From a virus (lineage: Duplodnaviria; Heunggongvirae; Uroviricota; Caudoviricetes): DNA of 13,144 bases. Below, in pieces: positions 4,230-7,694 of the stretch. The stretch is taken from IMG/VR virus record IMGVR_UViG_2537561709_000009; one strand, written 5' to 3'. The position numbers were made by a program, and so were the translations under genes. Under the pieces are notes generated by a model. It searched no databases. It worked only from the letters and a program-made list of their open reading frames with translations, and was not told the origin of the DNA. Position 1 is the stretch's first letter, and the number at the start of each line of letters is the position of its first letter.

Positions 4230-5480
4230 GTGATGACCGGAATCAAAATTATGAGCAGAGCACTTAACAAACTGAGCGATACACAGCTGAGGAAAATCAA
4301 CGGCACACCCGCCCAAAAAACAGCCTTTCTTAATGACGGTGGAAACCTGAGCGTCAGGCATTCAACCAGTGGCCTTTTAACCTGGTATTTCACTTACAGG
4401 GCCGGAACGGGAAGGGGGGCACCACCGGAACGCATTAAGCTGGGAAATTATCCTGATCTGAGCCTGAAATCAGCCAGGGAAAAAGCCGCCCAGTGTCGCG
4501 CATGGCTGGCAGAGGGGAAAAATCCACGTCATGAGCTTAATTACACCGTACAGGAAGCGTTAAAGCCGGTAACGGTTGGCGATGCGCTCACCTACTGGCT
4601 TGAGTCGTACGCAAAGGAAAACCGCGTGGATTATGCCGCCCTGAAAAAGCGCCTTAATAATCACGTAATACAGCACATTGGTGCTATGCCGCTGGATAAA
4701 TGCGAGCTACGGCACTGGCTGGCCTGTTTTGACCAGGTGGCAAAGCGAACGCCTGTTACTGCCGGATTCTTGCTACAGACGTGCAAACAGGCGCTTAAGT
4801 TCTGCCGGAGGCGGCGCTATGCAATCAGCAACGTTCTTGATGATATGAGTGTGGCGGACGTTGGGAAAAAACCGGATATAAGCGAGCGTGTCTTAAGCAC
4901 CAAAGAACTGGGCGAATTATTGCAGGCACTGGACAAAAAAATATTCTCCCCCTACTACATCGCGTTAATCCGCCTCCTGATTGTGTTCGGATGCCGGACG
5001 GTAGAACTGAGGTTATCGGAGATCAGCGAGTGGGATTTTACCGAAATGCTCTGGACCGTTCCGAAGGAGCACAGCAAAACGAAGGTAGCCATATTCCGGC
5101 CTATACCGGAAGCAATACTGCCGTTCATCACGCAGCTGGTGGAGCAGAACAGGCACACGGGCTTATTGCTGGGGGAAGTGAAACAGGAGGCCAGCGTATC
5201 GCAGTATGGAAGATTAGCGCACAGGAGGCTTAATCACCCTCACTGGTCACTGCATGACATCCGGCGCACCTTTACAACCATGCTGAACGATTTAGGCGTT
5301 GATCCGCATGTCGTGGAGCAGCTTACAGGCCACCAGATGCCAGGAATGCAGCGAGTTTATAATCATTCCCGTTATCTGGATGCGAAACGCAATGCGCTGG
5401 ATATGTGGACGGAGCGGTTAGGGATACTGGCGGGAACACATGAAAACGTAACCACGCTACCAGTAGCCAGAAGAAAATAA
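4230..5480 (+). CDS. int: Tyrosine recombinase / phage integrase (P4/CP4-57-like, with N-terminal arm-DNA-binding-type domain)
   Basis: 416-aa ORF. N-terminus has the LSDTQLRK...GGNLSVR...WYFTYR pattern typical of the arm-binding domain of P4-like integrases. C-terminal catalytic region has R...HxxRxT (HDIRRT) and a terminal tyrosine region (RVYNHSRY). Start is ambiguous: GTG 4230, ATG 4233 or ATG 4251; none has a strong Shine-Dalgarno. Confidence 0.9.
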   Translation: MMTGIKIMSRALNKLSDTQLRKINGTPAQKTAFLNDGGNLSVRHSTSGLLTWYFTYRAGTGRGAPPERIKLGNYPDLSLKSAREKAAQCRAWLAEGKNPRHELNYTVQEALKPVTVGDALTYWLESYAKENRVDYAALKKRLNNHVIQHIGAMPLDKCELRHWLACFDQVAKRTPVTAGFLLQTCKQALKFCRRRRYAISNVLDDMSVADVGKKPDISERVLSTKELGELLQALDKKIFSPYYIALIRLLIVFGCRTVELRLSEISEWDFTEMLWTVPKEHSKTKVAIFRPIPEAILPFITQLVEQNRHTGLLLGEVKQEASVSQYGRLAHRRLNHPHWSLHDIRRTFTTMLNDLGVDPHVVEQLTGHQMPGMQRVYNHSRYLDAKRNALDMWTERLGILAGTHENVTTLPVARRK

Positions 5481-5575: not shown

Positions 5576-5844
5576 GCGAAAAAGCGTACGGATTTATAAG
5601 TAGCTGATTTTTAATGTGTTACTGGTTTTTTATACACTAGCGAATCACTCTTTAAAGAGCGAGAAAAAAGGCATGGAACAATATTTTATGCCTTTGTATT
5701 AACATGAATTTAAAAGATTTTATTCTTACTTTTTCATTTTCTGTAAATCATACATCCTCAGTATTTGCCATTCATCACTCTAGCGGGAACAATACGACAC
5801 AATAAGACACCTGATGACTCTTTAAGAAACGAAAGGGGGCAATA

Positions 5845-6033
5845 GTGTTAAGCACTGATCGGTTTATACGTGAAAAAGAATGCGAAAAACTAACCGGCCT
5901 TAGCCGTACGTGTCGCTACCGCCTGGAAAAGGCCGGACAATTCCCATCACGTCGTAAACTTGGCGGTCGTTCCGTTGGCTGGTCTTTATCCGAGGTTCTG
6001 GCCTGGAAGGATAGCTGCAAGGCAGTTCATTAA
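5845..6033 (+). CDS. alpA: AlpA-family phage transcriptional regulator (excisionase-like HTH)
   Basis: 62-aa ORF from GTG 5845 with AAGGGGG Shine-Dalgarno at 5833-5839. Helix-turn-helix segment LTGLSRTCRYRLEKAGQFP and C-terminal GWSLSEVLAW resemble AlpA of CP4-57 as recalled. Same orientation as int and downstream of it, as in CP4-57-type elements. Confidence 0.8.
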   Translation: MLSTDRFIREKECEKLTGLSRTCRYRLEKAGQFPSRRKLGGRSVGWSLSEVLAWKDSCKAVH

Positions 6034-6179
6034 TCACGCTGGCGGCACACAGCCGCCACACATCAATCATCTGAACACAGAGCTATAACCATGAAGATTG
6101 AATATACGCCAGAACGTGGGCGGGGATTCGTTCGCCCTGGTGAGACTGGAAAACCACAAAATTGGGGTTTTTCAGGCAT

Positions 6180-6207
6180 AAAAAAAGCGGCCCCGAAATG
6201 GAGCCGC
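6180..6207 (-). terminator. Candidate intrinsic terminator for a minus-strand transcript (Arc-like operon)
   Basis: On the minus strand GCGGC / 11-nt loop / GCCGC is followed by seven U (plus-strand A-run 6180-6186). The stem is only 5 bp, so this is weak. Confidence 0.35.
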
Positions 6208-6302
6208 CTTTCTGAACAGATAACCCGCTGCGCCTTATGTGTATATGATCCCAAACATAAGCACGGGGATGATAGCCGCTATCAGGCTGGTGGGCAATGC
6301 TA

Positions 6303-6491
6303 TCAGTCTGGTTCAGTTCGTTGCCATACCTGCAATGGGCGCGTTTCCCTGTACTCTTTAAGGAATTGCTCAAGGGCAAAAGCACATGGCGCGAATCTTT
6401 CTGATTCATGCTCTATCTTTCTGCGCCGTCTTTTCCGTGCCGGTGATAATGTTTTGGTCAATTCTTTATCGGTCATTGTGTTGTCCTGCAT
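6303..6491 (-). CDS. Hypothetical small basic protein downstream of the Arc-like gene (coding status uncertain)
   Basis: 62-aa ORF (MQDNTMTDKELTKTLSPARKRRRRKIEHESERFAPCAFALEQFLKEYRETRPLQVWQRTEPD). An internal ATG at 6476 has an AGGA 7 nt upstream. Lies between the Arc-like stop and the candidate minus-strand terminator. No recognisable family. Confidence 0.25.
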   Translation of the reverse strand: MQDNTMTDKELTKTLSPARKRRRRKIEHESERFAPCAFALEQFLKEYRETRPLQVWQRTEPD

Positions 6492-6533
6492 AGCAATGCG
6501 CCGTAATACCTCACACCACGGCGCTGATAGTTT

Positions 6534-6707
6534 TTATCCTTTGGGTTCTATGCCGCGTTGCTGTAATTCTTTGCGGAGAACGCGTTTAATCCAAGTGGCT
6601 AAAGATGTGTCGCCATCGGCCTTAGCAGCTTCTTCTAGCTGCGCTCTGAAGTCTTCCGGTAATCGCATTTGGTATGGAGGCGAACGTTTTTCTAATGGTG
6701 TTGACAT
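6534..6707 (-). CDS. Arc/MetJ-type ribbon-helix-helix DNA-binding protein (putative element repressor); not in the ORF track
   Basis: Hand-translated 57 aa: MSTPLEKRSPPYQMRLPEDFRAQLEEAAKADGDTSLATWIKRVLRKELQQRGIEPKG. N-terminal beta-strand (YQMRLPEDF) followed by two helices matches the Arc-like ribbon-helix-helix pattern. AAGGG Shine-Dalgarno 8 nt upstream of the ATG. Divergent from the downstream plus-strand operon. Confidence 0.7.
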   Translation of the reverse strand: MSTPLEKRSPPYQMRLPEDFRAQLEEAAKADGDTSLATWIKRVLRKELQQRGIEPKG

Positions 6708-6775
6708 GGTAATTACCCTTTATTGCTATACCTACATGGTAATTACCATTGTACTTGCTATTACACAAAAATCAA
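6704..6775 (-). promoter_or_regulatory. Promoter of the Arc-like gene with two palindromic operator candidates (GGTAATTACC)
   Basis: Minus strand: -35 TTGATT (6775-6770), 16-nt spacer, -10 TACAAT (6753-6748). Perfect palindrome GGTAATTACC at 6738-6747 (directly after the -10) and at 6708-6717 (overlapping the Shine-Dalgarno, abutting the ATG). Each sits in a 14-bp direct repeat ACATGGTAATTACC, 30 bp apart. Confidence 0.5.
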
Positions 6776-6837
6776 CGCCCCGCAGTGCTGGGAACACATA
6801 CGGGGCGTCTAACCAACAACGTAAACTAGGAGCCGTT

Positions 6838-7035
6838 ATGGTTGCCGTAAATCATATACCACACCTTGTACACACACAAACGGCCTTTGTGTGGCGTTTT
6901 CTGGCACTGAGTGCCGGAGAATCTCAAATCATCCACGTAACCGCCTGGACGGAACGCGAAGCGCGTAACCGTTGCCCGTCCGGTTGTGTTGCTGTATTTG
7001 CCGCCCGTATTCGTCAGGAGGTGCGCCATGATTAA
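6838..7035 (+). CDS. Small protein, Icd-like (P4 host-cell-division-inhibitor-like) by recalled motif
   Basis: 65 aa, MVAVNHIPHLVHTQTAFVWRFLALSAGESQIIHVTAWTEREARNRCPSGCVAVFAARIRQEVRHD; AGGAG Shine-Dalgarno at 6828-6832. This is the only credibly coding part of the 314-aa track ORF 6091-7035. Family assignment rests on memory of the FxWRF...EREAR...FAARI pattern and is unverified. Confidence 0.6.
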   Translation: MVAVNHIPHLVHTQTAFVWRFLALSAGESQIIHVTAWTEREARNRCPSGCVAVFAARIRQEVRHD

Positions 7036-7240
7036 TCTGTCACTTACTGACCTTAACCGCATTCAGTTTCGTGAGAAATTCACAGGGCAGCTACTGGTCA
7101 ATGTGGATAAAGGTCGCGTGGTGTGTAATTACCACTTACCAGATGAAGCAATTGTCGCCACAAGGGAATCATTACAGGAAATCACAAAACGTGCCGGAAT
7201 GATTAACACGAATATTCAGGGGATGCTTTATGCACAATAA
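7028..7240 (+). CDS. Hypothetical protein (70 aa)
   Basis: ATG 7028 with AGGAGG 5 nt upstream; start overlaps the upstream stop (7033-7035). Track ORF 6986-7240 trimmed to this start. Confidence 0.65.
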   Translation: MINLSLTDLNRIQFREKFTGQLLVNVDKGRVVCNYHLPDEAIVATRESLQEITKRAGMINTNIQGMLYAQ

Positions 7241-7694
7241 AACCACACCGGACGCAGCCGCCGAAGCCATCAAAACGCTGATGCACGCGCTGATTGATAT
7301 TTCTGTTATCGCGGACAGGGCACATAAGCACGCCACCAGCGAAACAGAATATGCCGGTGCTTTCGTTCCTCACTCACTGGCTGTCATGCAATTTAGTGCT
7401 GATACGGCGCTGAATGAGGCCAAAGCTATCCTGATTGCTGATTGTGAAAATGGGGGGGTTATGCGTGATGATCGTTTTAATTCCCTGAAACAGGAATTTT
7501 CCGGCGTTCCTGATGATGCGGCTGATGCGCTTTCGTCAATGCCAGAACTTATTAGAGCGGCTTTTTTCTTACTTTCCACGAGAGAATATAAATCAACGGG
7601 GCTTGATGTACTGAATATCGCCGCCGATTATGCGGAATATGTGGCAGAGGCGCGTTATAGAAGAAAATTTCCTGAGGATGTAAGCCATGCGTGA
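7230..7694 (+). CDS. Hypothetical protein (154 aa), predicted helical
   Basis: ATG 7230 overlaps the upstream stop (7238-7240); GGGG-type Shine-Dalgarno upstream. No recognisable motif. Confidence 0.75.
   Translation: MHNKTTPDAAAEAIKTLMHALIDISVIADRAHKHATSETEYAGAFVPHSLAVMQFSADTALNEAKAILIADCENGGVMRDDRFNSLKQEFSGVPDDAADALSSMPELIRAAFFLLSTREYKSTGLDVLNIAADYAEYVAEARYRRKFPEDVSHA

Follow-up and report, generated by a model that had tools for sequence, protein, structure and literature searches.

The stretch of DNA analysed here (the window) is the 13,144-nt IMG/VR record IMGVR_UViG_2537561709_000009, a segment of an Escherichia coli O157-type chromosome with 100% identity to many O157:H7 genomes. It contains the satellite EcCIEDL933, a capsid-forming phage-inducible chromosomal island (PICI) also called O-island 51 (OI-51), CP-933C or Sp7. 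Between the alpA and Icd-like (icd) genes of this satellite, an original prediction made from the sequence had placed, at positions 6180-6533, a second gene or an RNA downstream of an Arc-like gene. We consider it probable that 6707-6180 on the minus strand is a leftward two-gene unit in the regulatory 'switch' zone of EcCIEDL933 and that 6180-6533 is its distal half. The unit runs from a sigma-70-type promoter through a gene for a ribbon-helix-helix (RHH) protein, a 57-nt spacer with a hairpin and a 57-aa open reading frame (ORF) to an intrinsic terminator (Table 1). All the predicted elements are present, and their occurrence goes beyond chance: in a comparison set of 172 loci, taken from complete E. 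coli genomes, one Shigella genome, IMG/VR and metagenomes, the small ORF is intact in every locus, and the distance from the RHH stop codon to its ATG is exactly 57 nt in 163 of the 166 loci that have an upstream RHH ORF. The module is present in 1604 of 5426 complete E. coli genomes (~30%).

Table 1. Features of the alpA-icd zone and its surroundings in the window
Feature	Position	Strand	Details
Two-gene unit	6707-6180	-	Promoter, RHH gene, spacer with hairpin, 57-aa ORF, terminator
Intrinsic terminator of the leftward unit	6180..6213	-	GC-rich stem 6187-6207, U7 tail 6180-6186
Small protein gene	6303..6476	-	57 aa + stop, MTDKELTKTLSPARKRRRRKIEHESERFAPCAFALEQFLKEYRETRPLQVWQRTEPD
Intercistronic spacer	6477..6533	-	57 nt; stem 6514-6524 with 6498-6508, loop 6509-6513
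RHH repressor gene (Arc-like; NCBI 'YlcI/YnfO family')	6534..6707	-	57 aa, first cistron
Operator-like repeats	6704..6749		Two copies of GGTAATTACCATGT, 6734-6747 and 6704-6717; repeat/palindrome search
Leftward sigma-70-type promoter	6748..6775	-	TTGATT 6775-6770, 16-nt spacer, TACAAT 6753-6748; scan, 9/12 matches
Second hairpin, terminator-like	6771..6809	-	Followed by UUGAUUUUU; between the icd/kil ribosome-binding site and the leftward promoter
Eta-like open frame	6034..7035	+	333 codons; first ATG 6091 (314-aa ORF 6091..7035); antisense to the whole leftward unit, promoter region included
Icd-like (icd/kil-like) gene	6838-7035	+	Own AGGAG Shine-Dalgarno; nested in-frame in the eta-like frame
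alpA (satellite activator/excisionase family)	5845..6033	+	Pfam Phage_AlpA, E = 5e-17; PGAP annotation
Integrase gene	4230-5480		Satellite gene
potA, pepT, roxA			Chromosomal genes preceding the satellite
RepA-family helicase, SSB, PerC, capsid, decoration protein, small terminase			Satellite genes beyond the Icd-like gene

The leftward unit and the coding status of its second gene

The small ORF had been noted as a minus-strand frame of 57-62 aa with an arginine-rich stretch, and both forms are found in the window. The longer form, at 6303..6491, has 62 aa and carries ARKRRRRK; its upstream ATG at 6491 is not conserved and is missing in relatives. The conserved start is the second ATG, at 6476, which gives 57 aa. 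A protein search retrieved 38 homologs with identities down to 63%, all of them from E. coli or Shigella, most of which begin at the second methionine; the indels among them are in-frame (6-nt), and the ATG is invariant. The product also matches phrog_21027 over residues 6-51 of the 62-aa form (E = 3e-16, 60 bits).

The pattern of codon substitutions favours coding. In seven diverged representatives, the Nei-Gojobori ratio of nonsynonymous to synonymous substitution rates (dN/dS) is 0.34 in the frame of the small ORF, the lowest of the six frames, while the plus-strand shadow frame gives 0.45 and the other four frames 0.8-1.2, and in all three gene sets the minus-frame value lies below the plus-frame value. 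Since the two frames with low dN/dS share their third codon positions, we examined the codon changes that discriminate between them. In the core of the ORF, leucine is encoded by CTT, TTA or CTA and arginine by AGA or CGA, which are first-position changes that are silent in the minus frame only, and other core residues show synonymous variation alone, proline with all four codons and cysteine with both. These comparisons, together with the intact frame throughout the set, bear out the prediction of a second protein-coding gene that is co-oriented with the Arc-like gene and downstream of it, and on this evidence 6476-6303 is the gene of a real 57-aa protein.

An untranslated small ORF would leave the 330 nt as a 3' untranslated region or regulatory RNA of the RHH transcript, or as a shadow of the long ORF on the opposite strand. 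An open minus frame of 57 codons is in fact not improbable antisense to a selected frame. The Shine-Dalgarno-like motif in front of the ATG is weak (AGGA), the C-terminus of the protein is variable and is frameshifted in some relatives, and the gene has no PGAP call in the window genome. PGAP does call it in many other genomes, and the order of the dN/dS values, the first-position changes silent in the minus frame only, the invariant ATG, the fixed spacing and the in-frame indels all speak for translation. A search of Rfam with the whole window at the gathering threshold gave no hit, and one with 5700-7300 at E up to 10 gave no C4/isrK/cI-type RNA, only weak terminator look-alikes. We therefore regard an untranslated ORF as very unlikely.

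The unit ends at the hairpin with a seven-U tail that the original prediction had noted at 6180-6207. Folding confirmed it: on the minus strand the structure has an energy of -21.7 kcal/mol (z = -4.1) and none of 200 shuffles folded as well, while the plus strand reaches only -13 kcal/mol. A terminator scan tool did not list this hairpin. Among the relatives, 57 of 76 distinct downstream regions have a hairpin followed by a T-run, with at least three different stem sequences. A second terminator-like hairpin, at 6771-6809, is more stable on the minus strand (-24.9 kcal/mol, z = -4.3) than on the plus strand (-18.4 kcal/mol, z = -1.4), and its U-run contains the -35 hexamer of the leftward promoter. 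This hairpin could insulate the promoter from leftward read-in, or it could structure the icd leader on the plus strand.

Both genes are already known as gene calls in many genomes, the RHH gene as 'YlcI/YnfO family' and the small ORF as 'hypothetical protein' (phrog_21027), and they are uncharacterised. In the window genome, PGAP places no minus-strand gene between alpA and icd and annotates 6091-6684 (+) as an 'Icd-like pseudogene'. The RefSeq labels of this zone (6091-6684 (+) in the window, 2499-2754 in locus L006) vary by genome and include 'Icd-like pseudogene', 'BRO-N domain pseudogene' and 'ash family pseudogene'; elsewhere the same zone is labelled 'YlcI/YnfO family protein' plus 'hypothetical protein', or carries no label. 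The inconsistency probably arose because long ORFs of the plus strand, described below as eta-like, were once deposited as proteins.

The family of the small protein is narrow. It belongs to the phrog_21027 / 'hypothetical protein' clusters of E. coli and Shigella (e.g. WP_000182305/6), which have no member with a described function. A profile search among 1.8 billion representative proteins found nine clusters at E up to 0.001, one of which is a spurious repeat protein, and in species-representative genomes the gene occurs at a single locus, in Shigella. No match was obtained by tblastn against 50,697 phage records or by sequence and fold searches of the PDB, and Pfam and NCBIfam gave no toxin, ANT, P22_AR, antirepressor, N or Nun family match. 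None of the PADLOC defence models matched the small protein, the RHH protein, the Icd-like protein or AlpA. In the AlphaFold2 model, the small protein has a disordered basic N-terminus, one confident helix at residues 24-45 (block-mean predicted local distance difference test score, pLDDT, up to 93) and a disordered tail. The helix carries the conserved, amphipathic motif E-R-F-A-P-C-x-F-x-L-E-x-F-L-K-x-Y. The basic arm is variable: the L003/L007a type of locus has QKTNREHEN in place of the arginine-rich stretch, and in the relative P0042 the basic cluster lies at the C-terminus.

The RHH gene and its relation to the small protein

The product of the first gene matches the Arc-like family phrog_228 (E = 1.5e-6), and its dN/dS is 0.26-0.27. 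AlphaFold2 models an extended N-terminal segment followed by helices at residues 18-31 and 36-50 (pLDDT 77.5), and the fold covers approximately residues 9-50. When this model was compared with the PDB by Foldseek, all 44 matches were RHH proteins (AmrZ, Arc, CopG, NikR and RHH antitoxins), many with a root-mean-square deviation of 0.7-1.6 Å over 33-38 columns. Homologs of the window's RHH type are widespread in Gammaproteobacteria.

Operator-like sequences surround the start of the gene. The first copy of GGTAATTACCATGT is part of a perfect 14-bp palindrome, ATGGTAATTACCAT (6736-6749), directly downstream of the -10 hexamer, and the second copy spans the RHH start codon and adjoins a plus-strand TTGACA (6701-6706). 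Across the loci, the RHH genes are highly diverse, with at least 13-15 types in two architectures, and each type has its own predicted operator repeats (e.g. ATGGTAATTACCAT, AGGTGTCAGCCAC, TGTGCGCACA, ACTGGATTCCAGTA), at fixed positions in 13 of 16 representative loci. These type-specific repeats surround the leftward -10 hexamer and adjoin a TTGAC on the plus strand. Because repressor type and operator repeats co-vary, the RHH protein looks, from these sequence patterns, like an immunity repressor of divergent promoters. The diversity resembles that of immunity groups, with at least 13 RHH types within E. coli satellites alone (window 6700-6780 and the equivalent regions of L002-L168). Some satellites carry tandem RHH(+small) cassettes or an extra RHH gene within one unbroken antisense frame (L007 2206-3387; L182 2501-3625; L003 2739-3865).

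The original prediction had compared the two genes to an antitoxin-toxin or a repressor-antirepressor pair. We found that small proteins at least 93% identical to that of the window follow 10 different, unrelated RHH clusters, and that the borders of the mosaic blocks seen by BLAST coincide with gene borders, indicating that small protein and RHH type are not paired. In the satellites of Pasteurella, Xenorhabdus and Yersinia that were examined, no other gene shares the strand of the RHH gene, which is divergent from the replication genes and is not followed by a small ORF.

If the unit were a type II toxin-antitoxin pair stabilising the island, the RHH protein would be the autoregulating antitoxin and the small basic protein the toxin. 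The gene order, the palindromic operators over the promoter and the tight, fixed spacing do resemble such operons, and RHH homologs are labelled 'HicB family antitoxin' in some databases. Against this, the 57 residues of the RHH protein comprise the DNA-binding fold only, with no toxin-neutralising extension; the small protein is a single helix that matches neither toxin families nor PADLOC models; the 10 RHH clusters in front of one and the same small protein are not what cognate co-evolution would leave; the RHH gene stands alone at the same position in other genera; and the operators overlap a promoter-like site of the icd/replication operon, which suits an immunity repressor. A toxin-antitoxin pair is therefore very improbable.

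Similarly, an antirepressor would inactivate the repressor of the satellite or of a helper prophage, as in the arc-ant pair of P22 immI. The arrangement of P22 Pant-arc-ant is indeed mirrored here by an Arc-like first cistron with a second gene behind it. As in P22 immI (Pant-arc-ant, Mnt) and with other Arc/MetJ RHH repressors, a repressor of ~55 aa with the RHH fold comes first in a short, putatively autoregulated operon with repeated or palindromic operators over its promoter. AntA/AntB and BRO-N genes lie near related loci, and P4 encodes a small antirepressor, epsilon, of 95 aa. The second cistron is nevertheless a single-helix protein of 57 aa here and the ~300-aa Ant in P22; the RHH protein here would control the replication operon of the satellite instead of an antirepressor gene; and its score against Pfam Arc does not reach the threshold. 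Neither an ANT nor a P22_AR nor any other antirepressor domain is present in the small protein, and a protein made together with the RHH repressor in the quiescent state would oppose repression if that repressor were its target. The independence from RHH type rules out a cognate antirepressor of the RHH protein, and we consider an antirepressor of any kind quite unlikely. Given the mismatch with RHH types, the minimal RHH protein and the lack of a toxin or defence family match, the small protein is probably neither a toxin nor a cognate antirepressor.

A third suggestion was an arginine-rich RNA-binding protein. In the spacer, the predicted hairpin at 6498-6524 was supported when the minus-strand RNA was folded, with 11 pairs (G-U among them) at -17.7 kcal/mol (z = -1.8). 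The spacer hardly varies in sequence among the loci, including those where the genes on either side have diverged. A protein like lambda N or HK022 Nun might bind this hairpin, or the boxB of a helper phage (the helpers of EcCIEDL933 are presumably lambdoid), and control termination or translation, and several observations agree with such a role: ARKRRRRK lies in the disordered N-terminal arm of the window protein, the hairpin belongs to one mosaic block with the small ORF and exceeds it in conservation, and lysogens of EcCIEDL933 undergo induction according to the paper on capsid-forming PICIs. The resemblance to lambda N and Nun fails at several points, since the arm is not conserved (the L003/L007a type lacks it and P0042 has it displaced) while the hairpin stays identical or nearly so, the protein shows no homology to the N or Nun families, and the loop differs from the GNRA-like pentaloop of boxB. 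Covariation in the hairpin is not significant (88.4% of cells paired, compared with 87.2% in shuffles), although one distant copy has a compensatory pair, C-G to U-A. We thus judge an N- or Nun-like protein unlikely. Most likely, the spacer hairpin sets the ratio of expression or stability between the two cistrons; a binding or recombination site would be an alternative role, inferred only. A pairing of the hairpin loop with the 5' coding region of icd, spotted by eye, is probably due to chance.

The eta-like frame on the plus strand

Opposite the cassette lies a long plus-strand frame, which the original prediction had taken to be non-coding. Its first codon directly follows the alpA stop, its first ATG comes 57 nt further on, and it ends with the Icd-like gene. 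In 143 distinct sequences of the comparison set, the frame is open for 136-607 codons, and in three further loci for 422-805 codons (799-805 where the cassettes are duplicated). For the other two plus frames, the open stretches in the first 12 loci examined measure only 13-174 codons. The frame is also open in the satellites of Pasteurella (200 codons) and Xenorhabdus (363-377 codons). In about two-thirds of the sequences it runs in-frame into icd, and in about one-third it ends a short distance ahead of the icd ATG. In 118 of 136 distinct loci, the first ATG of the frame is placed between -83 and +94 nt relative to the stop codon that closes an upstream ORF, and a Shine-Dalgarno sequence is often present. 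The coordinates of the frame in other relatives are L004 2418-4241, L181 3963-1546, L182 3945-1546, L174 3254-2652 and L176 3812-2679.

To estimate how often such a frame would be open by chance, we simulated the window sequence. The frame stayed open in 6% of trials when the two minus-strand genes were recoded synonymously (P = 0.06), in 0.08% when the non-genic parts were shuffled by dinucleotides (P = 0.0008), and in none of 5000 trials when both were combined. In addition, 15 RHH variants that are less than 80% alike contain no plus-frame stops, where 14.5 would be expected from codon usage (joint P = 3.5e-8, a value that over-estimates the independence of the variants). The simulations and the missing stops suggest that the frame is selected to stay open. 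The synonymous sites of the minus-strand genes appear to be selected against antisense stops. The amino-acid sequence of the frame over the cassette is another matter: it is Cys/Ser/Arg-rich, and only the last 65 residues match a family. These residues contain the Icd-like domain NF033153 (E = 9e-17 for residues 266-309 of the long ORF, E = 5e-18 for the short gene), and outside this end the plus ORF has no match in Pfam, NCBIfam or PHROG profiles. In the region to the left of the small ORF, there are too few substitutions for dN/dS to judge the constraint on the plus-frame amino acids. Megablast of 5800-7100 against the 50,697 phage records gave no match, and tblastn of Icd one weak match. 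We conclude from these comparisons that the plus frame is probably kept free of stops by selection while its amino-acid sequence over the cassette is unconstrained.

The anatomy of the frame resembles that of the nested eta and kil genes of P4. Translation of eta is reported to prevent immunity-specific termination (Forti et al. 1999, as summarised in PMC10111431). In P4, the frame with its end at the old 'cI ORF' has 218 open codons, counted from 8821, inside the 3' end of vis (8764-9030), and its C-terminus (residues 164-211) matches NF033153 at E = 1.4e-20. In both elements, the beginning of the long ORF coincides with or falls within the 3' end of alpA (vis, its homolog in P4). The ORF then runs across the immunity determinant and an internal promoter, and its last part is a short gene, nested in the same frame, that carries an Icd/Kil-like domain. 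From the shared start position relative to vis/alpA and the Icd-like C-terminus, the long ORF of the window and its nested gene are the counterpart of eta/kil, and by analogy with P4 eta, a role in preventing termination would explain the selection against stops. The immunity factor of P4 is an RNA of the same strand (cI), whereas the determinant nested in EcCIEDL933 is an antisense protein cassette with its own promoter, predicted operators and terminator. The view that the 314-aa plus-strand ORF is non-coding is hence probably wrong, given the selection for an open frame and the eta/kil anatomy, though the sequence over the cassette is free to vary. On the plus RNA, the hairpin at 6187-6207 is followed by CUUUCUG and lies ~96 nt into the eta-like ORF, where it could act as a translation-sensitive terminator for transcripts that read through from alpA.

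In some relatives, the long frame begins with a genuine BRO-N or Phage_ASH domain. The N-terminus of the eta-like ORF in the window (6091-6180 (+), MKIEYTPERGRGFVRP...) aligns with longer versions that hold a real or decayed BRO-N (left regions of L030 and L033), and the window copy looks, from this alignment, like a deletion derivative of a BRO-N-headed eta-like gene. These heads, the conservation of the long open frame and the published view that Gram-negative PICIs are transcribed in a single direction (PMC6092414) could be taken to mean that the plus strand carries the only real gene, the 'Bro-network' or Icd-like protein of older maps, and that the minus-strand RHH and small ORFs are artefacts. 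The RHH fold, the type-specific operators, the promoter and the terminators instead indicate genes on the minus strand, and the plus-strand sequence, which is Cys/Ser/Arg-rich and has no family outside its Icd-like end, evolves faster than the minus frames. We consider it extremely unlikely that the plus strand alone is coding.

A proposed switch between the two strands

The explanation that we favour, and hold to be likely as a whole, is a leftward operon of an RHH repressor and a small protein within a stop-free eta-like frame, with the RHH protein repressing the icd/kil-replication genes. In the quiescent satellite, RHH dimers would bind the operators and repress both the rightward icd/kil-replication operon and their own promoter. 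In this way the RHH protein would confer the immunity that in P4 comes from the cI RNA, and the small protein would be produced alongside it as an accessory factor. Upon induction by a helper phage, AlpA-dependent rightward transcription would enter from upstream. Ribosomes on the eta-like frame, coupled to alpA, would then prevent termination inside the antisense cassette and be delivered to icd/kil, as reported for P4 eta, while the convergent rightward transcription would collide with the leftward operon and silence it.

The contribution of the small protein is the least certain step of this scheme. Its conserved helix might bind a partner common to satellites or the host, such as AlpA, Icd/Kil or a host protease, with the basic N-terminal arm as a non-specific nucleic-acid tether, and the protein would then be a generic modulator that acts independently of the RHH type. 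The lack of a homolog of known function makes this role a guess, and we regard it as rather doubtful.

We put forward more tentatively, as a single joint proposal, that both strands of ~6300-6710 are translated at different times and that the small gene is young. The minus strand (RHH and 57-aa protein) would be translated in the quiescent state and the plus strand, as an eta-like anti-termination ORF, after induction; the RHH protein would be the immunity repressor whose existence was called 'unclear' in 2018; and the small protein would be encoded by a lineage-restricted gene, found in E. coli and Shigella only, that arose antisense to the eta-like ORF. We give this proposal slightly less than even odds and hold it less firmly than the operon itself.

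Several points weigh against these interpretations. The RHH product scores below the cut-offs of Pfam Arc (E = 0.038, 14.3 bits, cut-off 20.4) and of NCBIfam YlcI_YnfO_N (E = 1.4e-3, 18.7, cut-off 30), and its Foldseek E-values are all at least 1, because the query is short. For the window's RHH type, the candidate rightward promoter, which was seen by eye and is absent from the promoter scan, combines a perfect -35 with a weak -10 element. By dN/dS, the minus frame of the small ORF is separated only modestly from the plus shadow frame, because the third codon positions of the two coincide, and the hairpin lacks significant covariation. Some loci, with 136-250 codons, and the Yersinia satellite, with 77 codons, have an interrupted eta-like frame. 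The loci are related, recombining E. coli sequences, because of which the joint probabilities overstate independence. The small protein has no homolog of known function in Pfam, NCBIfam, PADLOC, the PDB, the 1.8 billion proteins or the phage records, and all that we say on expression is read from sequence. Of the earlier interpretation of the region, the second coding gene and the end of the unit at the terminator were upheld; the pairing as toxin or antirepressor and the non-coding plus strand were not, and the RNA-binding protein lost ground.

Among known repressors of satellites, the master repressors of Gram-positive PICIs (Stl/Rpr) offer a parallel. They too are encoded by a divergent gene between the integrase and replication sides and occur in many specificity types. 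They differ in having a helix-turn-helix fold, whereas here an RHH protein co-exists with the AlpA activator. Gram-negative PICIs, of which EcCIEDL933 is the capsid-forming prototype, have been described as unidirectionally transcribed and AlpA-switched, with the existence of a repressor 'unclear' (PMC6092414, 2018), and PMC10111431 treats the zone as 'Bro-network' genes and immunity RNAs. We found no description of an RHH immunity repressor for Gram-negative PICIs in the open-access PICI literature, nor, in the same literature, of selection against stops or of an eta-like ORF with an RHH cassette on its antisense strand.

RgdR (ECs1581) has been described for OI-51 as a regulator of the LEE (the enterocyte effacement locus) and motility (PMC3378721). 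In the window, a candidate for RgdR is the 99-aa DUF4222 ORF at 7926-8225 (+), which lies upstream of the helicase gene and agrees with RgdR in expected length and position.

If the scheme holds, the leftward operon would add a layer of immunity to the model of how the satellite is kept silent and senses its helper, and a hidden operon would explain why the zone is annotated so inconsistently ('Icd-like pseudogene', 'BRO-N pseudogene', 'hypothetical'). Real genes that lie opposite a stop-free frame offer a clear comparative example of selection acting on an antisense overlap, with P4-like anti-termination by translation as a candidate reason. In addition, the on/off logic of EcCIEDL933 is of practical interest because the satellite affects virulence regulation in enterohaemorrhagic E. 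coli through RgdR (PMC3378721).

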